Positions 3 through 19,165 are shown, numbered from the stretch's first letter. The stretch is DNA of 32,000 bases from Microcystis aeruginosa NIES-2549 (GCF_000981785.2 NZ_CP011304.1:1290001-1322000), one strand, 5' to 3'. Notes: a model not told the origin generated them from the sequence alone. Numbers and translations are program-made.

Positions 3-560
3 TTTCCCTATCTAGACATCTTTTTTGCGGGAACATCGCCCCCCCCGTCAATTTTACAGGCCGATCGAGCTAAAACTAATTCGATCGAGTTTTTTACCTT
101 TTCTAAGTCCTATAATATGGGCGGTTTTCGCATCGGTTTCGCCATTGGCAACCCGCAGTTAATTATGGCTTTGCGACAGATTAAAGCCATGGTTGATTTT
201 AATCAGTATTTGGGCATCCTTAACGGTGCGATCGCTGCTTTAACCGGTAATCAAGATTCGGTCAAGGAAACCGTCGCTATCTTCCAAAAACGTCGGGATG
301 TGTTTATTAATGCCCTAAATCGCATCGGTTGGCCGGTTGCCACTCCGGCCGCCACTATGTACGTTTGGGCGAAAATTCCCCCCAGTTGGCCGGGTAATTC
401 CGTCGATTTTTGTCGGCAATTGGTGGCCCAAACCGGTGTCGCTGTTTCCCCGGGTTCCGGTTTTGGCAAGGGTGGCGAGGGTTATGTGCGTTTTGCCTTA
501 GTTCACGATCCCGATATTCTAGAGGCTGCCGTGGAGAAAATTGGGGCTTTTTTGGGATAA
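3..560 (+). CDS. PLP-dependent aminotransferase (class I/II fold), 3' portion; the 5' end is upstream of the window
   Basis: The frame of track ORF 117..560 stays open back to base 3. My translation is ..FAGTSPPPSILQADRAKTNSIEFFTFSKSYNMGGFRIGF.. This gives the SxSK...G.R PLP-lysine region typical of fold-type I aminotransferases, so ATG 117 is internal. Confidence 0.85.
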   Translation, partial: FPYLDIFFAGTSPPPSILQADRAKTNSIEFFTFSKSYNMGGFRIGFAIGNPQLIMALRQIKAMVDFNQYLGILNGAIAALTGNQDSVKETVAIFQKRRDVFINALNRIGWPVATPAATMYVWAKIPPSWPGNSVDFCRQLVAQTGVAVSPGSGFGKGGEGYVRFALVHDPDILEAAVEKIGAFLG

Positions 561-729
561 AACCGATATTCTCAGCAGTAGTTATGCTGCAATCGATAAC
601 TTTCGCCTTGTTGCTGCTGATATTCCGGGTGATATTGGTAATGTGTCCACTCCCGAACCTTCTAGTATTATCGGACTAGGCATACTAGATGGTGGTTTAG
701 TGGTGCGTCGCCTCGCTAAACGTCGTTAA
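541..729 (+). pseudogene. 3' remnant of a PEP-CTERM protein gene; only the sorting-signal end survives
   Basis: ..AAIDNFRLVAADIPGDIGNVSTPEPSSIIGLGILDGGLVVRRLAKRR shows a PEP motif, a hydrophobic span and a basic tail. Its last ~45 nt plus the following ~185 nt (687..915) are near-identical to 3791..4018. There is no signal peptide or protein body, and the ORF start overlaps the aminotransferase stop. Confidence 0.5.
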
Positions 730-794
730 TCGCGCTTGGGGTGGGGGGATGAGCCAAAATTTTGCCAATTCGCCACCCTTTGCGGTTAAAAGCT

Positions 795-1013
795 TTAATT
801 GTGCTGCTGTCTTTGTAATTGCTCGATAGTTGCGGGGGATAAATCGGTAAATCGGGCGATTTCTGGGATAGGAAAACCAGCAGATAGCATTTTTAGGGCA
901 ATTTGTCGAGCTTTTTCTTCTTTACCCGCTTGCAATCCTTTTTGTAGTCCCTTTTCCTCGCCTTCCTCTCTGCCTTCCTCTAAAATATCTTGATAGATGA
1001 CGGATTCTCTCAT
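795..1013 (-). CDS. Free-standing copy (orphan A, 72 aa) of the Rpn-like C-terminal module: E/K/G-rich linker plus helix-turn-helix-like ..ARQIALKMLSAGFPIPEIARFTDLSP..
   Basis: Track ORF. ATG (rc of 1011..1013) lies 7 nt downstream of GGAG (rc of 1021..1024). The same ~40-nt linker+SD is found inside genes 1036..1827 and 2091..2870. Confidence 0.6.
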   Translation of the reverse strand: MRESVIYQDILEEGREEGEEKGLQKGLQAGKEEKARQIALKMLSAGFPIPEIARFTDLSPATIEQLQRQQHN

Positions 1014-1035
1014 AATGTCACTCCGAAGGATTTTT

Positions 1036-1239
1036 TTAATCGTCTCTCGATTGTAATTCCTCGATAGTTGCGGGGGATAAATCGGTAAATCGGGCGATTT
1101 CTGGGATAGAAAAGCCAGCAGATAGCATTTTTAGGGCAATTTGTCGAGCTTTTTCTTCTTTACCCGCTTGCAAGCCTTTTTTTAGTCCTTTTTCCTCGCC
1201 TTCCTCTAAAATATCTTGATAGATGACGGATTCTCTCAT
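1036..1239 (-). CDS. Putative nested in-frame small ORF (67 aa) equal to the C-terminal module of copy 1
   Basis: Internal ATG (rc 1237..1239) lies 7 nt downstream of GGAG (rc 1247..1250). The identical context precedes the free-standing orphan modules. Confidence 0.3.
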   Translation of the reverse strand: MRESVIYQDILEEGEEKGLKKGLQAGKEEKARQIALKMLSAGFSIPEIARFTDLSPATIEELQSRDD

Positions 1240-1827
1240 AATGTCACTCCGAAGGATTTTTTTAATCGTCTCTCGATTTAATACTAACCCGGCGAGAATA
1301 CTGGTAGCGGCAGCGAGATTGCTTTGCACCTGTTTTTCGGGGATAGTTTCTAAAGAACGGGACACCTGACTTAACACCTGTTCGGGGTCATCGGTATTGC
1401 TGAGGATGGCAAAGGGTAATAAACCGGGATGATGAAAAAATTGTGGTGTATTTTCTTCCCAAAGACGGATGACTTGAAAGGAATGAAAGGTTTCCCCCAG
1501 ACGGAAAGTATTTTCTTGCACTAGGGGGGAATCACTGCGTCGCAGATAAATTACCACTTGACGCATTTGTTTTTGGGGATGACGACGATAGACGCGAATG
1601 CGATAATCGAGCATTCGGAAGGGAATTTTGGAGTCGGGGTCGGTTTGAAACTCGGTATGGAGAATCAATTCCTCTGACTGCAAAAAAATCAGGGAATCGG
1701 CACGAATGGGGTCTAATTGTAATTCCGTCGGGTCGAGGACGGTTAAGGGGAGGGGAGAACCCAATAACCAAGTGGCTAGATCATCGGAGAAGTTTTCGGC
1801 GATAAATTTACAAATATTATCAAACAT
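1036..1827 (-). CDS. Rpn-family (YhgA/Transposase_31-like, PD-(D/E)XK) putative recombination-promoting nuclease, copy 1
   Basis: 263 aa from ATG 1827, equivalent to the start of copy 2. The track's extra 21 aa up to 1890 overlap orphan B and have no counterpart in copy 2. It carries the nuclease-core-like ..RADSLIFLQSEELILHTEFQTD.. and a C-terminal HTH-like module. Confidence 0.8.
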   Translation of the reverse strand: MFDNICKFIAENFSDDLATWLLGSPLPLTVLDPTELQLDPIRADSLIFLQSEELILHTEFQTDPDSKIPFRMLDYRIRVYRRHPQKQMRQVVIYLRRSDSPLVQENTFRLGETFHSFQVIRLWEENTPQFFHHPGLLPFAILSNTDDPEQVLSQVSRSLETIPEKQVQSNLAAATSILAGLVLNRETIKKILRSDIMRESVIYQDILEEGEEKGLKKGLQAGKEEKARQIALKMLSAGFSIPEIARFTDLSPATIEELQSRDD

Positions 1828-2068
1828 CGTGAGCGTTTTGTCTTTGTAATTCCTCGATAGTTGCGGGGGATAAATCGGTAAATCGGGCAATTTCTGGGAT
1901 AGAAAAGCCAGCAGATAGCATTTTTAGGGCAATTTGTCGGGCTTTTTCTTCTTTACCTTCTTGTCGTCCTTCTTGCAGTCCTTCTTGTCGTCCTTCTTGT
2001 CGTCCTTTTTCCTCGCCTTCCTCTCTGCCTTCCTCTAAAATATCTTGATAGATGACGGATTCTCTCAT
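1820..2068 (-). CDS. Free-standing copy (orphan B, 82 aa) of the Rpn-like C-terminal module with an expanded (R/L)QEG linker
   Basis: Track ORF. ATG (rc 2066..2068) is preceded by GGAG (rc 2076..2079). Its stop overlaps the ATG of copy 1 by 8 nt. Confidence 0.6.
   Translation of the reverse strand: MRESVIYQDILEEGREEGEEKGRQEGRQEGLQEGRQEGKEEKARQIALKMLSAGFSIPEIARFTDLSPATIEELQRQNAHDV
1956..2003 (-). repeat. 4 x 12-nt tandem repeat (ccttcttgtcgt / ccttcttgcagt) encoding (R/L)QEG x4 inside orphan B
   Basis: Read directly: 1956..1967, 1968..1979, 1980..1991, 1992..2003. Confidence 0.9.
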
Positions 2069-2090
2069 AATGTCACTCCGAAGAATATTT

Positions 2091-2282
2091 TTAATCGTCT
2101 CTCGATTGTAATTCCTCGATCGCGTCGGGGGATAAATCGGTAAATCGGGCGATTTCTGGGATAGAAAAGCCAGCAGATAGCATTTTCAGGGCAATTTGTC
2201 GAGCTTTTTCTTCTTTACCTTTTTGTAGTCCCTTTTCCTCGCCTTCCTCTAAAATATCTTGATAGATGACGGATTCTCTCAT
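2091..2282 (-). CDS. Putative nested in-frame small ORF (63 aa) equal to the C-terminal module of copy 2
   Basis: Internal ATG (rc 2280..2282) is preceded by GGAG (rc 2290..2293). Confidence 0.3.
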   Translation of the reverse strand: MRESVIYQDILEEGEEKGLQKGKEEKARQIALKMLSAGFSIPEIARFTDLSPDAIEELQSRDD

Positions 2283-2870
2283 AATGTCACTCCGAAGGAT
2301 TTTTTTAATCGTCTCTCGATTTAATACTAACCCGGCGAGAATACTGGTAGCGGCAGCGAGATTGCTTTGCACCTGTTTTTCGGGGATAGTTTCTAAAGAA
2401 CGGGACACCTGACTTAACACCTGTTCGGGGTCATCGGTATTGCTGAGGATGGCAAAGGGTAATAAACCGGGATGATGAAAAAATTGTGGTGTATTTTCTT
2501 CCCAAAGACGGATGACTTGAAAGGAATGAAAGGTTTCCCCCAGACGGAAAGTATTTTCTTGCACTAGGGGGGAATCACTGCGTCGCAGATAAATTACCAC
2601 TTGACGCATTTGTTTTTGGGGATGACGACGATAGACGCGAATGCGATAATCGAGCATTCGGAAGGGAATTTTGGAGTCGGGGTCGGTTTGAAACTCGGTA
2701 TGGAGAATCAATTCCTCTGACTGCAAAAAAATCAGGGAATCGGCACGAATGGGGTCTAATTGTAATTCCGTCGGGTCGAGGACGGTTAAGGGGAGGGGAG
2801 AACCCAATAACCAAGTGGCTAGATCATCGGAGAAGTTTTCGGCGATAAATTTACAAATATTATCAAACAT
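2091..2870 (-). CDS. Rpn-family (YhgA/Transposase_31-like, PD-(D/E)XK) putative recombination-promoting nuclease, copy 2
   Basis: 259-aa track ORF. The N-terminal ~205 aa are identical to copy 1. It differs only in the C-terminal module (GLQKGKEEK vs GLKKGLQAGKEEK; SPDAIE vs SPATIE). Confidence 0.85.
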   Translation of the reverse strand: MFDNICKFIAENFSDDLATWLLGSPLPLTVLDPTELQLDPIRADSLIFLQSEELILHTEFQTDPDSKIPFRMLDYRIRVYRRHPQKQMRQVVIYLRRSDSPLVQENTFRLGETFHSFQVIRLWEENTPQFFHHPGLLPFAILSNTDDPEQVLSQVSRSLETIPEKQVQSNLAAATSILAGLVLNRETIKKILRSDIMRESVIYQDILEEGEEKGLQKGKEEKARQIALKMLSAGFSIPEIARFTDLSPDAIEELQSRDD

Positions 2871-3053
2871 TGTCAGGGATTACTTTCCGTTTCTCCTAGG
2901 ATACCCTCGGTCGCCGGTGTTGACATCCTGTATTCGCCGTAACTGTTGCCGAAGAGAATCGTAGCGCAGAATACATTATAGACAAAATTCAACTTTAATT
3001 ATGGACTAATTGTATAAATATCGGCAAATTTGTCACATATTCCCAGAAATTTC

Positions 3054-3083
3054 TTGACAATTGCTAGAGGAAGGGAGTAGATT
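3054..3083 (+). promoter_or_regulatory. Candidate sigma70-type promoter for the PEP-CTERM gene
   Basis: TTGACA at 3054..3059, an 18-nt spacer, TAGATT at 3078..3083, about 27 nt upstream of ATG 3111. Based on sequence pattern only. Confidence 0.3.
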
Positions 3084-3110
3084 ACAATCACATCAATTTT
3101 ATGAAGCTTT

Positions 3111-3833
3111 ATGTCATTAGAAAAACTTATCAACCATGGGGGGGGGGAGAAGCATAGCTTATCAAAGGCTCTGCTCAAATCCTTTTCCCTAGCCACGGTT
3201 TTTACCACTACCCTTGTGCTGAGTTCGGTATCTTCCGCCGAAGCTTTCACTACTTTCACTAATCGCACCGCTTGGCAAGCTGCCGTCGATGCCATCGCTG
3301 GCAGTGTCACCACCACCGATACTTTTACCAACAACATCGCCTCTGCTCAAACAATAACACTGGATTCGGGCATCGTTTCGGCGAATTCCTTTCCACCCGC
3401 AGTTGCGTATGGGGATAATAGCGTTGGTGGAGGACTTTTCAACAATGCCACTGATGGAGATGCGAGTGGTGCTTCCGCAACTATCACTTGGACTTTTCCC
3501 TCACCTGTGTTTGCCTTCGGAGCGGATTTTAAAGGTACTGCGGCTGGCGGGCTAAACCTAACGGGAAATTTCGATGGTACAGGAAACCAAACTCTGCTTG
3601 TGAATGACAGTATCGGCGGACCAGACGGCTTTCTGGGCATTATTGGTAACGCAAACTTTAGCTCGATCGTCTTTGGGAATAATACAACTTTCTTCGATTC
3701 CTTCCAGATCGATAGCGCTTCTTTTGCCTCTGTTGCCTCTGTTCCCGTCGCAGTTCCTGAACCTGGTATGATCACAGGATTGGTGTTCTTAGGTGGTGGT
3801 TTAGTGGTGCGTCGCCTCGCTAAACGTCGTTAA
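3111..3833 (+). CDS. PEP-CTERM sorting-domain secreted protein
   Basis: Signal-peptide-like KALLKSFSLATVFTTTLVLSSVSSAEA, a G/T/N/S/A/F-rich body, and a C-terminal VPEPGMITGLVFLGGGLVVRRLAKRR (PEP motif, TM span, basic tail). Confidence 0.85.
   Translation: MSLEKLINHGGGEKHSLSKALLKSFSLATVFTTTLVLSSVSSAEAFTTFTNRTAWQAAVDAIAGSVTTTDTFTNNIASAQTITLDSGIVSANSFPPAVAYGDNSVGGGLFNNATDGDASGASATITWTFPSPVFAFGADFKGTAAGGLNLTGNFDGTGNQTLLVNDSIGGPDGFLGIIGNANFSSIVFGNNTTFFDSFQIDSASFASVASVPVAVPEPGMITGLVFLGGGLVVRRLAKRR
3138..3147 (+). repeat. Homopolymeric G10 tract inside codons 10-13 of the PEP-CTERM gene
   Basis: Counted directly: ccatGGGGGGGGGGagaag. Confidence 0.9.
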
Positions 3834-3841
3834 TCGCGCTT

Positions 3842-3890
3842 GGGGTGGGGAGATGAGCCAAATTTTGCCAATTCCCCACCCTTTGCAGTT
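3842..3890 (+). terminator. Candidate terminator hairpin after the PEP-CTERM gene
   Basis: GGGTGGGGA (3843..3851) pairs perfectly with TCCCCACCC (3873..3881) and is followed by TTTGCAGTT. The loop is long (21 nt), so this is tentative. Confidence 0.35.
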
Positions 3891-3897
3891 AAAAGCT

Positions 3898-4098
3898 TTA
3901 ATTGCGCTGCTGTCTTTGTAATTGCTCGATTGCGTCGGGGGATAAATCGGTAAATCGGGCAATTTCTGGGATAGAAAAGCCAGCAGATAGCATTTTTAGG
4001 GCAATTTGTCGAGCTTTTTCCTCTTTGCCTTCCTCTTTGCCTTCCTCTAAAGCTTCTTGATAGACTTTAGTTTCCCTTAAATCACTTAAACTAAACAT
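3898..4098 (-). CDS. Free-standing C-terminal module (orphan C, 66 aa from ATG 4098): MFSLSDLRETKVYQEALEEGKEEGKEEKARQIALKMLSAGFSIPEIARFTDLSPDAIEQLQRQQRN
   Basis: ATG (rc 4096..4098) lies 9 nt downstream of AAGGAG (rc 4108..4113). The frame is open upstream to 4216 but without an ATG. The track ORF 3898..4131 starts at a TTG that is a Leu codon in the homologous gene. Confidence 0.5.
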   Translation of the reverse strand: MFSLSDLRETKVYQEALEEGKEEGKEEKARQIALKMLSAGFSIPEIARFTDLSPDAIEQLQRQQRN

Positions 4099-4216
4099 TT
4101 TTTCAATCTCCTTACGGTTTAATTTGGGCAATTTATAAATGAGAATTGTCTCGATTAATTCCAGAATGTCCTCTCTTTTTAAAGACTCCTGAAATTGTTG
4201 CTTAAATTGTTGAATC
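4040..4216 (-). repeat. 177-bp segment about 97% identical to 4406..4582 inside gene 4231..5052
   Basis: My manual alignment gives a constant offset of 366, 5 mismatches and no indels. Homology stops exactly at the ..EALEEG | C-terminal-module boundary. Confidence 0.9.
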
Positions 4217-4230
4217 TAAGGCTTTTTTCT

Positions 4231-4464
4231 TTAATTTAACCATTGCCGCAAATCTTCTAAATCCGAAAACCCCAACAACGCAAGAGCTAAATTATCCAGT
4301 TGATTAGGATTTAATTGTTTAATTTTTTGTTCTACCTTTAAAGGAATAGAACCGAGTTTTAAGTTTAGCTGACGCAAAATTAGGCTTTTTTTAGCGGATA
4401 ATTCTCCTTCCTCCAAAGCTTCTTGATAGACTTTAGTTTCTCTTAAATCACTTAAACTAAACAT
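4231..4464 (-). CDS. Putative nested in-frame small ORF (77 aa) equal to the C-terminal module of gene 4231..5052
   Basis: Internal ATG (rc 4462..4464) lies 9 nt downstream of a perfect AAGGAG (rc 4474..4479). Confidence 0.3.
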   Translation of the reverse strand: MFSLSDLRETKVYQEALEEGELSAKKSLILRQLNLKLGSIPLKVEQKIKQLNPNQLDNLALALLGFSDLEDLRQWLN

Positions 4465-5052
4465 TTTTTCAATCTCCTTACGGTTTAATTTGGGCAATTT
4501 ATAAATGAGAATTGTCTCGATTAATTCCAGAATGTCCTCTCTTTTTAAAGACTCCTGAAATTGTTGTCTAACTTGTTGAATCAGTTCTTTTCCTTGAGCT
4601 AAGGTATTTTGTTCCGATTCCACAATTAATTGTAACACTTTTACCCCCAGAGAATCCCCCTCATCTAACTGATTCAGATAATAACAGTTAACCCGGCCTG
4701 ACTCAAAGAATTCTTGATAACGAGATTTGGGACTATTTTCAATTTCCCGATGGGGATAAATGATCACCCCTTGCCAATTGTTCTTACTCTCACTTTGATG
4801 AAAATAGAGAAATATTTCACTAAAAAAGCGCGAGTAAAACCGTTCATCTTTTTGAAATTGTACCTCAACAAAGTAAATCGGATCATTGAGGTTATCGGGA
4901 AGAAAAACCCCATCTAAACGAAAAGCGAGTTGTTTAACTTCTAGGGAGGAAAATTGATAATGATTGACGGTTTCTGGGGGAAGATTGAGCAAATCAAAGA
5001 AACTTTCAGGAAAAGTCTCAAAGAGACGATAGAAAATACTGTCCGTTTTCAC
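4231..5052 (-). CDS. Rpn-family PD-(D/E)XK putative nuclease paralogue (MKTDSIFYRLF.. type) with a DUF4351-like C-terminus
   Basis: 273-aa track ORF with ..RLDGVFLPDNLNDPIYFVEVQFQKD.. as a nuclease-core-like motif. The C-terminus ..LILRQLNLKLGSIPLKVEQKIKQLNPNQLDNLALALLGFSDLEDLRQWLN resembles DUF4351. Confidence 0.8.
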   Translation of the reverse strand: MKTDSIFYRLFETFPESFFDLLNLPPETVNHYQFSSLEVKQLAFRLDGVFLPDNLNDPIYFVEVQFQKDERFYSRFFSEIFLYFHQSESKNNWQGVIIYPHREIENSPKSRYQEFFESGRVNCYYLNQLDEGDSLGVKVLQLIVESEQNTLAQGKELIQQVRQQFQESLKREDILELIETILIYKLPKLNRKEIEKMFSLSDLRETKVYQEALEEGELSAKKSLILRQLNLKLGSIPLKVEQKIKQLNPNQLDNLALALLGFSDLEDLRQWLN

Positions 5053-5099: not shown

Positions 5100-5203
5100 C
5101 TAAAGCTTGGGGATAGGAAAGCCAGCAGATAGCATTTTTAGGGCAATTTGTCGAGATTTCTCTTCTTTGCCCTTTTCCTCTCCTTTCTCTAAAATGTCTC
5201 GAT
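5100..5203 (-). pseudogene. Truncated remnant of the HTH-like module, abutting the dapB stop
   Basis: My translation is ..DILEKGEEKGKEEKSRQIALKMLSAGFPIPKL*. It lacks both a start and the distal half of the module. Confidence 0.6.
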
Positions 5204-6034
5204 TTAGAGGATTTTTTCTAAACCGTAAACGAGGGATTGCAGCTGAGTAACTTTGCGGATAGAAAGGAGAACCCCCGGCATATAACAGGAGCGATCGCTG
5301 GTATCGTGACGAAGGGTATAGATTTCTCCAGGAGAACCGAAAATGACTTCCTGGTGAGCAATTAAACCGGGTAAACGCACGCTATGAATACGGATGTTCT
5401 CAGCAGTTAAACCGCCTCTAGCACCGGGGATGGTTTCTTTTTCGGAAACTTGGGCAGGATTAAAGGTTTTACCTAATTCGGCCAGTAATTCGGCGGTTTT
5501 AATGGCTGTGCCACTGGGTGCGTCTGCTTTTTGATTGTGATGCAGTTCGATAATTTCCACATGATCAAAGTAGCGGGATGCTTGCACGGCAGCCTGTTGT
5601 AGTAAAACCATGCCAATGGAAAAATTGGGGATAACTAAACAGCCAGTGCTGGCTTTTTCGGCAAATTCGGCTAAATCTTGCAGTTGTGCCGCCGATAATC
5701 CCGTAGTTCCCACCACGGGACGCACTCCATAGGCGATCGCACTGCGGGTATTGTCATAAACACCGTCGGGATGGGTAAAATCCACCATTACCCCCTGCAC
5801 TTTTTCCTGAGTTGCCAGGACTAAAACACTCTGTAAATCGTCGAGAATCGGCACTTCTAGGGGTTCACAACCGGCCACTTCCCCCACATCCTGACCTCGA
5901 AAAGCTGGATTTCGATCGACTGCACCCACTAAGATCATATCGTCGGCACGAGCAACGGCTTTAATAACTTCCCGTCCCATTTTGCCGGCTGCACCGTTGA
6001 CAACTACGGGAATCGGGCCTCTATTTTCGGTCAT
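5204..6034 (-). CDS. dapB: 4-hydroxy-tetrahydrodipicolinate reductase
   Basis: The N-terminus [14 protein letters not shown] is a Rossmann motif, followed by ..[15 protein letters not shown].. (the DapB signature). AAGGAG lies upstream of the ATG. Confidence 0.95.
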
Positions 6035-13460: not shown

Positions 13461-14573
13461 ATGGAAAAAGCCTATTCTTACCGATTTTACCCCACACCCG
13501 AACAAGAGTCGCTATTGCGGCGCACTTTGGGCTGTGTAAGATTAGTTTACAACAAAGCTCTCCACGAACGAACACAAGCTTGGTACGAAAAGCAAGAAAG
13601 AGTAGGCTACGCTCAAACTTCTTCAATGCTAACCGATTGGAAAAAACAAGAAGAATTAGAGTTTTTAAACGAAGTTAGCTGTGTACCCTTACAACAAGGG
13701 TTAAGACATTTACAAACAGCTTTCACTAATTTCTTTGCTGGTCGTACTAAGTATCCTAACTTTAAGAAAAAACATCAGGGAGGAAGTGCCGAATTTACCA
13801 AGTCTGCTTTTAAATTTAAAGACAGACAAATCTATTTAGCTAAATGCACAGAACCTTTACCTATTCGATGGTCAAGACAAATCCCAGAAAGCTGTGAACC
13901 AAGCACAGTAACAGTCAGATTACATCCCTCTGGACGCTGGCATATTTCAATAAGATTTGATGACCCAACGATTAAGCCTTTACCAGTAACAGATAAAGCC
14001 ATTGGAATTGACTTAGGAATTAGTAGCCTAGTAATTACCAGCGATGGCGATAAAGTATCTAATCCCAAGCATTTTAAGAAACATTATCAGAGGTTGCGAA
14101 GAGCATCGAAAAGCCTTTCTAGAAAACAGAAAGGGTCAAAAAATCGAGAAAAGGCAAAAATCAAAGTAGCCAGAATTCACGCTCAAATCACCGATAGTAG
14201 AAAAGACCATCTACATAAGCTAACCACTCAATTAGTTCGTGAAAACCAAACGATTGTGGTTGAGAATTTAGCCGTCAAGAATATGGTCAAAAACCCGAAA
14301 TTATCTCAGGCAATATCTGATGTAAGCTGGGGTGAAATCACTAGACAATTAGCCTATAAATGCCGTTGGTATGGGAGAAATTACATCGAAATAGATAGAT
14401 GGTTTCCTAGCTCTAAAAGGTGTAGTAATTGCGGGTATATTGCTGAGAAAATGCCGTTAAATGTTCGAGAATGGGACTGTCCAGACTGTGGGACACACCA
14501 TGACCGAGATATTAACGCAAGTAAAAATATTTTGGCCGCAGGGCTTGCGGTGTCAGTCTGTAGAGCGACCTGA
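13461..14573 (+). CDS. tnpB: TnpB (OrfB) RNA-guided endonuclease-type transposon protein
   Basis: MEKAYSYRFYPTPEQ.. N-terminus. The split RuvC triad is IGIDLGI / VVVENL / HDRDINASKNI, with a zinc ribbon CSNCGY..CPDCGTHH. Confidence 0.95.
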   Translation: MEKAYSYRFYPTPEQESLLRRTLGCVRLVYNKALHERTQAWYEKQERVGYAQTSSMLTDWKKQEELEFLNEVSCVPLQQGLRHLQTAFTNFFAGRTKYPNFKKKHQGGSAEFTKSAFKFKDRQIYLAKCTEPLPIRWSRQIPESCEPSTVTVRLHPSGRWHISIRFDDPTIKPLPVTDKAIGIDLGISSLVITSDGDKVSNPKHFKKHYQRLRRASKSLSRKQKGSKNREKAKIKVARIHAQITDSRKDHLHKLTTQLVRENQTIVVENLAVKNMVKNPKLSQAISDVSWGEITRQLAYKCRWYGRNYIEIDRWFPSSKRCSNCGYIAEKMPLNVREWDCPDCGTHHDRDINASKNILAAGLAVSVCRAT

Positions 14574-17491: not shown

Positions 17492-18424
17492 ATGGCATTT
17501 AACGTTACAAAACAGCGTAATTTTTGGTGGACAGTCTCGGCCTTGCTGACGATTGGTAGTATTTTGGCCATGGTAATTTCTTGGTTCACTATTCAAGCGC
17601 CTTTACGACCGAGTTTAGATTTTGTTGGTGGCACGAGAATTCAGATAGAATTAGCCTGTGCCAAAAAGAATACCTGTGAGAAACCCTTAACTACTGCCGA
17701 AGTGCAAGCAATTTTAGAAGAGGAAGGATTGGGTAACAGTAGTGTGCAGGTGTTGGATAAATATACTTTATCGGTGCGGACTAAAACCCTAGCAGAAGAA
17801 CAGAGAACAAAATTACTCGACACCTTAAATCAGAAAATTGGCACCTTTGACCCCGAAACCGGTCAAATCGATACCGTCGGGCCCACCATCGGTCAAGAAT
17901 TATTTAGGTCGGGATTTTTAGCTTTATTAGTGTCATTTTTTGGCATTGCCGTCTATCTCAGCTTCCGTTTTCAACGGGATTACGCTTTTTTTGCCATTGT
18001 CGCCCTGCTGCACGACGTTTTGATCACTTTAGGGGTCTTTGCGGTTTTAGGCTTAATTGCGGGGGTAGAAGTGGATAGTTTATTTTTGGTTTCCCTCTTG
18101 ACAATTGTGGGCTTTTCTGTTAACGACACAGTGGTAATTTATGATCGCGTCCGGGAAAATTTTGCTAATACCCCCGAATTATCCGTGGATGAAATTGTCG
18201 ATAATGCGGTGAGTCAAACCCTAACTCGTTCAATTAATACCACCCTGACCACTTTATTGCCTCTGGTGGCGATTTTTCTCTTTGGTGGCACCACCTTAAA
18301 ATATTTTGCCCTAGCTTTAATTATTGGCTTTGTAGCCGGGGCCTATTCGAGTATTTTTATCGCTAGTACCCTACTAGCTTGGTGGCGCGGTCGTTCCCAT
18401 CGACCCACACTCAATTACAGTTAG
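17492..18424 (+). CDS. secF: Protein translocase subunit SecF
   Basis: ..[10 protein letters not shown].. and ..[20 protein letters not shown].. are SecF motifs. Confidence 0.95.
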
Positions 18425-18744
18425 GATGCCATTGGTGAAGAATCAGTCGGTCTTGGATAGGTCGTAATAGTAATTTCAACCTGTTGATTGAGACTACCCA
18501 AAATTGAGATCAAACGGTCAATAGTAAAGCGTCCCAAATTAGCACGGCGAATCTGAACAAATTCACTGTGATTAATTCCAGTTCGCACTTGAGCATCGCG
18601 GGTTGATAAGTCTTCCTTCTCCAGAACCTTGATAATTTCAGCAGCAAGCAGTGCTTTCGCTTGTCGCACGTCCGCATCCACATCGCCAAAATCGCGGTAC
18701 ACATTCCCGCTACCTTGTACCAGTTCAAATTGTTCTTCACTCAT
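18421..18744 (-). CDS. XRE-family helix-turn-helix antitoxin (HigA-like)
   Basis: ..[37 protein letters not shown].. is an HTH. Its ATG overlaps the upstream toxin stop (ATGA at 18741..18744). Confidence 0.75.
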
Positions 18745-19085
18745 GAGAGTTCCTCCTTCAATCGCTTGAGCCGTGCTTTGATAACTTCGACTTCTTGCTG
18801 TGGTGTTTTGATCCCTTTTGGGGATTTTTTCTGGAAGGCATGAATCACCCAGATAGCCTCACCTAACTGGACAGCATAAATAGTTCGATAGGCATCCCCC
18901 TTGAAAGGTAGAGCAATCTCGAACACACCAGAACCTATCCCCTTAAAAGGCTTGGTTAGGGATGATTTTGCCCCTTCTGCTGCAATAGTTAAAGCGTCAA
19001 GTACAATTTCTTGGGCTTCCTTGGGAAACTTTTGAAAATCTTTCCGTGCCGCTTTAATCCAAGATATAGGACGGGTATTACGCAT
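18741..19085 (-). CDS. RelE/HigB-superfamily toxin of the phage Gp49-like (DUF891) type
   Basis: 114 aa from ATG 19085: MRNTRPISWIKAARKDFQKFPKEAQ..FEIALPFKGDAYRTIYAVQLGEAIWVIHAFQKKS.. The toxin-first order is typical of HigBA. The track's longer start at 19157 is less likely. Confidence 0.7.
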   Translation of the reverse strand: MRNTRPISWIKAARKDFQKFPKEAQEIVLDALTIAAEGAKSSLTKPFKGIGSGVFEIALPFKGDAYRTIYAVQLGEAIWVIHAFQKKSPKGIKTPQQEVEVIKARLKRLKEELS

Positions 19086-19165
19086 TCGCTTATGGTGATA
19101 TAACTGATACCACCTGTCAAGCCCCATTATACCTGTTGAAGGTTTTGCTTGTGTCAATCAAAGCG

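Follow-up and report, generated by a model that had tools for sequence, protein, structure and literature searches.

Within a 32,000-nucleotide stretch of the Microcystis aeruginosa NIES-2549 genome (NZ_CP011304.1:1290001-1322000; hereafter the window), we examined a tandem array of four open reading frames (ORFs) on the minus strand. Two genes for Rpn-family nucleases, gene2 and gene1, are each followed by a short ORF (orphan B and orphan A, respectively) that resembles the C-terminal part of the nucleases. We think it quite probable that this locus is a cyanobacterial rpnL/rpnS toxin-antitoxin arrangement, and a candidate anti-phage system, with extra free-standing copies of the antitoxin gene (rpnSs). 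It is not a novel kind of system. Rather, it is a clear fresh example, from Microcystis, of the known layout of rpnLS plus rpnSs, duplicated in tandem.

Rpn genes encode toxin-antitoxin systems: besides the full-length nuclease (RpnL), an internal start yields the C-terminal domain by itself (RpnS), and this short protein inhibits RpnL (Zhong et al. 2023, PNAS 120:e2307382120, PMC10400941). The same study reported that the first helix of RpnS contains a tract of four-residue repeats that varies widely among strains, and that an extra repeat in just one of the partners abolishes neutralization (as seen for E. coli RpnC). Free-standing rpnSs genes were found downstream of the nuclease genes (ypaA after rpnE and rpnCSs after rpnC), and they can disappear, either through deletion or through fusion to an N-terminal domain. 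RpnS may also be a separate gene that is annotated as DUF4351. An initial annotation of our locus had stated that this layout was undescribed for Rpn proteins. This is wrong, as rpnSs genes, tandem rpn arrays, and four-residue repeats were all described by Zhong et al.

We read the minus strand of the window from 600 to 3300 and listed its ORFs. The coordinates that had initially been given for the four ORFs (Table 1) are correct. The first 638 nt (212 codons, instead of the roughly 205 first reported) are the same in gene1 and gene2. In a base-by-base comparison, divergence starts at nucleotide 639, which is inside the repeat tract, and all of the differences fall from there on. Each unit of gene plus orphan is 1043 nt long, and a direct repeat of this length, 638 nt of which form an identical core, cannot be due to chance. 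The repeat-tract linkers of the four ORFs (EEGEEKGLQKGKEEK, EEGEEKGLKKGLQAGKEEK, EEGREEGEEKGLQKGLQAGKEEK, and EEGREEGEEKGRQEGRQEGLQEGRQEGKEEK) step by whole four-residue (12-nt) units. The other differences between the modules of the array are SPDAIE or SPATIE and FSIP or FPIP. Both genes terminate in ELQSRDD*, and the stop codon of orphan B and the ATG of gene1 overlap by 8 nt (ATGTTTGA). The linker sequences, these differences, the gene ends, and the overlap match what was first noted. But the orphans are not copies of each gene's "own" module, as had been claimed: their unit counts do not match those of the gene upstream (3 vs. 7 and 4 vs. 5).

A 50-nt stretch (ATCGAGAGACGATTAAAAAWATYCTTCGGAGTGACATTATGAGAGAATCC), which carries a Shine-Dalgarno (SD) sequence and an ATG, is the recombination junction of the array. 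A pattern search found four copies, one in front of each of the array's modules, attached or free. (The initial annotation had recognized that a repeated linker precedes the module, but with a length of about 40 nt.) On the 3' side of the module, the frame of this linker is off by one base, with TTA-CAA-TCG-AGA-GAC-GAT-TAA instead of the in-gene TTA-AAT-CGA-GAG-ACG-ATT, and this shift leads to the SRDD* end. The geometry of the junction is thus as claimed: the linker is re-used in a shifted frame, which yields a stop codon plus a new SD and ATG.

Nuclease bodies and C-terminal modules

Both genes are members of the Rpn family, as first proposed. They match TIGR01784 (Rpn family recombination-promoting nuclease/putative transposase) with 114.3 bits for gene2 and 112.5 bits for gene1, compared to a curated cut-off of 52.1 bits. 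(A third gene, gene3, which is described below, scores 72.2 bits.) The match to PF04754 (Transposase_31) was sub-threshold, at 16 bits. We disregarded matches to FliH in NCBIfam as low-complexity matches to the E/K/G-rich repeat tract.

We then examined the putative catalytic residues. Across 42 cyanobacterial homologs (56-95% identity), D3, D44, E59, and R71 are invariant and Q61 is nearly invariant. When the profile of these 42 sequences is compared to E. coli RpnE with hhalign, E59, Q61, and R71 align to E82, Q84, and R94 (E = 4.3e-5). In RpnA, D63, E82, Q84, and R94 are catalytic residues, and mutating them abolishes or alters activity (Kingston 2017, PMC5350276). D44 is outside the aligned stretch, but from the order of the motifs, it would be equivalent to D63 of RpnA.

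The modules, whether attached or free, are homologous to the antitoxin RpnA-S. Orphan B is similar to the crystallized RpnA-S from E. coli (PDB:7TH0; E = 9e-4 over 37 residues). In TIGR01784, the orphans cover about the final 50-60 positions (223-273 for orphan B), and the match to the RpnA equivalog profile is confined to its C-terminal positions 247-287. On related contigs, HTH_Rpn_C (PF27070) is the precomputed Pfam label of both the genes and the orphans; our own Pfam scan, with a set that did not include PF27070, gave only sub-threshold matches of the modules to generic helix-turn-helix (HTH) families. The AlphaFold model of the gene2 product (predicted local distance difference test, or pLDDT, of 83.4) has an alpha/beta body, followed by a 32-residue helix across the repeats (residues 201-232) and two short helices. 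RpnA-S is a three-helix bundle with the repeats in its long first helix, and the predicted layout of the gene2 module is the same. We know of no structure of a full-length Rpn protein in the PDB.

The signals for an internal start are conserved as well. M197, which is the first methionine of the module, is invariant in 42 of 42 homologs. GGAG-N7-ATG is present at the internal starts of gene2 (2293..2280) and gene1 (1250..1237) and at the start of orphan B (2079..2066). Among 20 distinct nucleotide versions from metagenome contigs, 19 have a GGAG or GAGG SD-like motif before the internal ATG, and the arginine codon that lies two to three codons before the ATG is always NGG (AGG or CGG). Even when the next serine codon switches from AGT to TCN, the SD-like motif is kept, so the synonymous choice preserves it. 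Such a pattern would be expected if an internal ribosome-binding site were conserved. We found no promoter-like site on the coding strand immediately before the internal ATGs, so that an internal promoter of the E. coli type is neither supported nor excluded. Five contigs from different samples (L152, L155, L157, L158, and L160) share a break in the nuclease body (around residues 142-153), with the SD, the ATG, and the module ORF intact. These alleles may each be a dead toxin with a live antitoxin.

The repeat tract begins 11 residues past the RpnS methionine; the hypervariable four-residue tract described by Zhong et al. (PMC10400941) begins 8-20 residues after it. Among 68 module copies from Microcystis, there are 37 distinct linkers, and 67 of the copies have linker lengths of 4n+3 residues (n = 2-8), with underlying units of 12 nt. 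The exception, in L147, is 44 residues long.

If the proteins work as in E. coli, then the full-length genes would encode PD-(D/E)XK DNA endonucleases (RpnL), and at the internal GGAG and ATG, ribosomes would also make the three-helix C-terminal module alone (RpnS). The long first helix of RpnS would bind RpnL and block it, and the number of 12-nt units in that helix would dictate which RpnS pairs with which RpnL. (According to a commentary, variation in the repeats would keep paralogs from inhibiting each other in trans; PMC10400984.) With 4 and 3 units, gene1 and gene2 would be two insulated toxin-antitoxin pairs, despite their identical bodies. Orphans A and B, and orphan C (see below), would be rpnSs genes, that is, modules with their own SD and ATG outside of any nuclease gene.

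The initial annotation also proposed that the four ORFs are co-transcribed, which is plausible. A consensus scan identified a promoter-like site upstream of gene2 (10 of 12 positions), and there is no terminator-like hairpin between any of the four ORFs. The gaps in the array are 22 nt, and one junction is the 8-nt overlap. The tandem units have at most 12 nt upstream of the body's ATG, which leaves no room for a promoter of the downstream genes' own. In the simplest reading, the four ORFs are probably one operon in which translation of gene1 is coupled to that of orphan B.

Table 1. Features of the rpn locus, with positions counted from the first nucleotide of the window
Feature	Position	Strand	Description
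gene2	2091..2870	minus	Full-length Rpn-family nuclease, RpnL-like, 259 aa; TIGR01784 match
Internal RpnS-like ORF of gene2	2091..2282	minus	ATG 2282, GGAG 2293..2290; 63 aa; 3 repeat units, tract 2249..2206
Orphan B	1820..2068	minus	Free-standing RpnS-like (rpnSs-like), 82 aa; 7 repeat units, tract 2035..1944
gene1	1036..1827	minus	Second full-length Rpn nuclease, 263 aa from ATG
Internal RpnS-like ORF of gene1	1036..1239	minus	4 repeat units, tract 1206..1151
Orphan A	795..1013	minus	Free-standing RpnS-like, 72 aa; 5 repeat units, tract 980..913; tail type RQQHN
50-nt linker copies	2271..2320, 2057..2106, 1228..1277, 1002..1051	minus	Carry SD and ATG; from pattern search and direct reading
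Promoter-like site	3009..3036	minus	GTGACA-16-TACAAT; candidate operon promoter
gene3	4231..5052	minus	Rpn nuclease of another subfamily: DUF2887 body and DUF4351 module, 273 aa
gene3 internal start	ATG 4464	minus	AAGGAG-N9-ATG
Orphan C	3898..4098	minus	Free-standing RpnS-like, 66 aa; 2 repeat units; same HTH module type as gene1 and gene2
Remnant D	5110..5203	minus	Truncated module without a start codon; abuts the dapB stop

The locus in other Microcystis genomes

Between dapB (6034..5204) and the aminotransferase gene, the window contains a third gene-plus-orphan unit, which the initial annotation missed. The product of gene3 matches PF11103 (DUF2887) with 262 bits and PF14261 (DUF4351) with 60.8 bits, and BLASTP detected no similarity between its body and gene2. 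Orthologs of gene3 differ by 0, 2, or 3 extra EEGR units. Upstream of orphan C is a 177-nt copy (4216..4040) of gene3's 4582..4406, with 97% identity, and this copy includes the SD and ATG. Furthermore, at the position of orphan C, contigs L081, L082, and L106 have full-length genes with a DUF2887 body and an HTH_Rpn_C module. Judging from these alignments, orphan C is demonstrably the relic of a 5'-deleted paralog of gene3, and the paralog is intact in L081, L082, and L106. One family of HTH_Rpn_C modules (around 90-95% nucleotide identity) serves two subfamilies of bodies that are unrelated by BLASTP. The five intact modules in the window have 2, 3, 4, 5, and 7 repeat units, all different.

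Remnant D is a shortened module of a third type (..SVPRLSVLGLTIEQIAQALDSEIEQVPQVIEG), with fuller versions in L002 (10885-11022) and L082 (1262-1525). In L157 (4552-4956), a module of this third type is fused behind a normal module by read-through.

We compared the locus to about 45 other Microcystis contigs. These came from a scan of species-representative genomes that was anchored on dapB, from look-ups of close homologs and of orphan A, and from a scan of metagenomes with a scripted census. (Exact-sequence look-ups for gene2 and for orphan B found no record, and the look-up for orphan A matched contig L163.) The dapB-anchored scan found at least three Microcystis loci among the matches listed. 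A comparison of the locus across genomes had been proposed at the outset; within Microcystis, it reveals that the site between dapB and the aminotransferase gene is hypervariable.

The contents of the site differ between strains. In M. wesenbergii, the gene1/gene2 array is absent, and there are an ortholog of orphan C and a gene3 with three extra EEGR units. In NIES-4325, gene3 is present in three tandem copies (L002 10964-12860), with a period of about 905 nt. The complete genome of NIES-102 has gene3 and, after it, a full-length gene3-type body with an HTH module. Next are three genes of the gene1/gene2 type in tandem, the last of which is split by a stop codon in its body. The genes are joined by the 8-nt overlap, and none of the four in this tandem series is followed by an orphan. 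In strain Sj, one gene is followed by two orphans, and the first orphan is identical to the gene's own module. Finally, Microcystis sp. T1-4 has no rpn gene downstream of dapB. The site behaves as a hot spot for cargo. (In place of rpn, T1-4 has two pairs of small genes (L003 1255-2975), which by eye are nucleotidyltransferase/HEPN-like.)

We also considered whether the tandem structure is real. A 638-nt perfect repeat is difficult for short-read assemblers, so the array might be an assembly artifact; or the genes might be transposases that inserted repeatedly, as members of this family are routinely annotated as "putative transposase." We consider either explanation extremely unlikely. L163, which is an independent assembly of a different strain (a 234-kb contig), has exactly the same four-ORF architecture, with 98.9% identity over 6 kb, and similar arrays are found in L083 (a 95-kb metagenome contig) and in the complete genome of NIES-102. 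We therefore rejected an assembly artifact as very unlikely. As for transposition, the units join almost at ORF boundaries (a few bases away at most), inverted repeats and target duplications are absent, and Zhong et al. (PMC10400941) attributed rpn arrays to direct tandem duplication and argued against transposition. Given these junctions and the lack of terminal repeats, we rejected a transposon origin.

The census of the 68 module copies found 33 that are attached, 15 that are free, 10 in frameshifted genes, and 10 that are cut by contig ends. Whenever a gene reads directly into ELQSRDD* and its contig extends further, an intact orphan comes next. In 11 gene-orphan pairs, the number of units (the length) differs in 8, and just 1 pair is identical.

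We also noticed several other features of the window. A 241-nt block occurs at 686-926 and again at 3790-4029, with 93.8% identity. It comprises the 3' end of a module and a convergent PEP-CTERM-like tail (..GGLVVRRLAKRR), and each rpn block therefore ends at the same kind of tail. The ORF at 541..729(+) looks like a duplicated fragment of a 240-aa gene at 3111..3833(+). Near the 5' end of the latter gene, after its ATG, is a run of ten Gs (3138-3147, plus strand). This tract is four bases longer in L163, whose gene call is 7 residues shorter; either phase variation or a sequencing error could be the cause. Among the housekeeping genes are a TnpB gene of the IS605 OrfB type (OrfB_IS605 plus a Cas12f1-like TNB domain; 13461-14573, plus strand) and a Gp49/HigB-like and HTH_37 gene pair (18421-19157, minus strand) that is likely a toxin-antitoxin system. 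An Rfam scan of the window found no families. In related strains, PIN and HicAB genes are near the dapB-downstream site.

Evolution and possible role of the free modules

How did the array form, and what has changed since? The initial annotation proposed that the module was duplicated once at a microhomology, that the whole unit was then duplicated, and that later change was confined to the module, which would imply (positive) selection on the C-terminal domain. The junctions do fit a microhomology event (TTA-AATCGAGAG vs. TTACAATCGAGAG), and within the window, the bodies differ at 0 of 638 nt while there are several differences between the modules. But several pieces of evidence contradict this model.

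First, the nuclease bodies evolve in concert or by recent re-duplication. When the window is compared to L163, 9 substitutions in the body of gene2 are mirrored in the body of gene1 at the same offsets (minus 1043). More broadly, the median difference between bodies is 6 of 636 nt within one array, as compared to 25 between contigs. Because of the mirrored substitutions and the low divergence within arrays, the identity of the two bodies is no evidence that only the module has changed.

Second, the modules recombine among copies. For the common polymorphisms in the module, nearly every pair of sites shows all four gametes. SPDAIE/SPATIE and FSIP/FPIP, in particular, are old polymorphisms that occur in all four-gamete combinations across copies. 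Also, the linker of orphan B was replaced wholesale between the window and L163. Both the four-gamete patterns and this replacement imply recombination. The modules also switch between states: two identical RpnS-region proteins and seven identical linkers are attached in some contigs and free in others.

Third, we ran the separate tests for body and module that had been suggested, using Nei-Gojobori estimates of the ratio of nonsynonymous to synonymous rates (dN/dS). The ratio is 0.09 for the body, and for the module core, it is 0.34 when attached and 0.41 when free. The dN of the module is about 4.5 times that of the body, as the initial model might lead one to expect, but all of the ratios are below 1. 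(The test for the module is weak, as it involves 33 codons, recombining copies, and non-independent pairs.) So the module is under weaker constraint, without detectable positive selection on substitutions, and it does not decay when free. The real hypervariability is in the number of repeat units.

Finally, the SRDD junction is old, because it is common to many strains and array forms. Overall, the initial model is largely refuted as stated, and we consider it quite improbable. Concerted evolution of the bodies, recombination of the modules, and changes in the number of repeat units replace it. A duplication of the module followed by a duplication of the unit is possible, but deletion of the body of a tandem paralog is another source of orphans, as with orphan C. 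The array was probably built, and is probably still being remodeled, by unequal homologous recombination among its repeated linkers, modules, and bodies. Such events would gain or delete bodies, modules, and 12-nt units, while gene conversion would homogenize the bodies and shuffle the modules.

We then considered whether the free modules have a function. Several points weigh against our reading of the locus as a toxin-antitoxin arrangement with functional rpnSs genes. Toxicity, neutralization, and a role in defense are extrapolated from E. coli and C. difficile, and the specificity of the repeat number would likewise follow from the work in E. coli. If the result for E. coli RpnC holds here, the mismatched orphans (8 of 11 pairs) should not neutralize the adjacent nuclease. 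The dN/dS of the free modules may just mirror the time that they spent attached, since the two states interconvert. A search of the PDB by Foldseek, with the model of the whole protein, gave no significant match (best E = 5.5e-3; none at E of 1e-3 or below) and did not recover 7TH0. The top matches include PD-(D/E)XK-type proteins, namely XisH (2inb), Nt.BspD6I, EcoO109I, and the nuclease domains of Can2 and Cap4. Also, the window around the array contains mostly housekeeping genes and is not a classical defense island. In PADLOC 2.0, no model matches the nuclease genes, and orphan B has just a weak match to "putative invertase."

An alternative is that the orphans are neutral and short-lived by-products of unequal crossing-over and of body deletion in a recombination-prone array. 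In this view, they have no function themselves, and only their youth has kept them intact. In its favor, orphan C demonstrably derives from a gene whose 5' part was deleted, and truncated relics do exist, including remnant D and the truncated modules that lie about 1 kb upstream of a gene in L085, L089, L108, L127, L132, L157, and L158. Modules switch between attached and free among strains, and most orphans mismatch their neighbor in repeat number. The orphans of L086 and L091 have GCAG in place of GGAG, and in E. coli K-12, RefSeq labels ypaA (L164 7817-8002) as a pseudogene. Nevertheless, we think that neutral orphans are rather unlikely. The initial annotation had said that its view would fail if the orphans were invariably decayed, but all 15 of the free copies of the MRES type are open from ATG to stop, and 13 of them keep GGAG. 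The protein of orphan A is identical, and in the same place, in the window and in L163, even though the two strains differ elsewhere. The dN/dS of the free modules (0.41) is well below 1. And in E. coli, YpaA (RpnE-Ss) is detectably synthesized, as a tagged protein (Zhong et al. 2023, PMC10400941).

A more speculative idea is that the orphans are a reservoir of alternative specificity modules. Recombination at the 50-nt linker could fuse a free module to a nuclease body or convert an attached one, and this would switch the pairing code, for instance to escape RpnS mimics from phages. In favor of this idea, a copy of the linker precedes every module, some strains have as free ORFs the same modules that others have attached, and the linker of orphan B was completely replaced between two strains that share 98.9% identity across the surrounding 6 kb. 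The four-gamete patterns and the five unit numbers of the five intact modules would also fit, and Zhong et al. noted a fusion of an N-terminal domain with an rpnSs (PMC10400941). On the other hand, the switch is one-way (by deletion) unless duplication balances it, there is no dedicated recombinase, and neutral unequal crossing-over is expected to give the same pattern. By our own estimate, if there are about six length classes, chance would give four distinct unit numbers about 28% of the time. A reservoir therefore seems distinctly doubtful to us, and it is not favored over neutral turnover or a role as antitoxins in trans. In its broadest form, the free modules, being mostly mismatched to their neighboring nucleases, would be cassettes instead of spare antitoxins. 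They would be swapped at the 50-nt linker onto a homogenized body, and even between unrelated subfamilies of Rpn bodies, which would re-code the RpnL/RpnS pairing in an arms race with factors from cyanophages. This too we consider unlikely.

Comparison with known systems

If the locus is a toxin-antitoxin arrangement with extra rpnSs genes, as we think, then the "antitoxin within a toxin" system of Rpn extends to bloom-forming cyanobacteria. Within Microcystis, one syntenic locus provides a natural series of variants: a gene may have no, one, or two orphans, the repeat units number from 2 to 8, and one family of modules is common to two subfamilies of bodies. This series is well suited to asking what mismatched free RpnSs do and how dodecamer repeats and modules are gained, lost, and exchanged. 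Both questions draw on how Zhong et al. discussed the origins of the repeats and of rpnSs, and on the mismatches that we counted. For annotation, genes labeled "hypothetical," "flagellar assembly protein H," or "putative transposase," and the small ORFs that follow them, should be renamed as rpnL, rpnS, and rpnSs. (In current gene calls, the Microcystis orphans are unnamed.)

The closest known arrangements are rpnE-ypaA and rpnC-rpnCSs from E. coli, whose modules, like those in Microcystis, are homologous to RpnA-S (7TH0). In rpnE-ypaA, as here, a nuclease gene with an internal SD and ATG is followed by the same stretch again, which starts a free copy of the module: reading the E. coli K-12 sequence directly, we found AAAAGGAGAGATTAATG inside rpnE and again immediately after the rpnE stop. 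YpaA is the internal module of rpnE plus one extra unit (KLEG), so in both organisms the free copy is off by a whole number of four-residue units. There are also differences. Here, the entire gene-plus-orphan unit is duplicated in tandem, with identical bodies, and in related strains a gene can have up to two orphans. The frame-shifted linker creates the stop codon, and the downstream gene overlaps the orphan. Finally, the Microcystis bodies are only distantly related to the E. coli Rpn proteins (the hhalign E value of 4.3e-5 mentioned above).

Tandem rpn arrays elsewhere, such as in Bacillus thuringiensis (SI Fig. S1B of Zhong et al.), also arose by tandem duplication and have repeat numbers that vary by copy. 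What the Microcystis locus adds is that the bodies evolve in concert while the modules recombine, and that one module family is common to two subfamilies of bodies. Small stand-alone proteins with DUF4351 or HTH_Rpn_C domains are free-standing modules of the RpnS type, as the orphans are. Orphans A, B, and C have the HTH_Rpn_C type; in the window, the DUF4351 type occurs only as the attached module of gene3.

The order of orphan B and then gene1, with overlapping stop and start codons, mimics the antitoxin-first order of a classical type II toxin-antitoxin operon. It is doubtful that these two form a cognate pair, because their repeat numbers (7 and 4) do not match. And unlike in a type II system, the putative antitoxin here is a copy of the toxin's own C-terminal domain.

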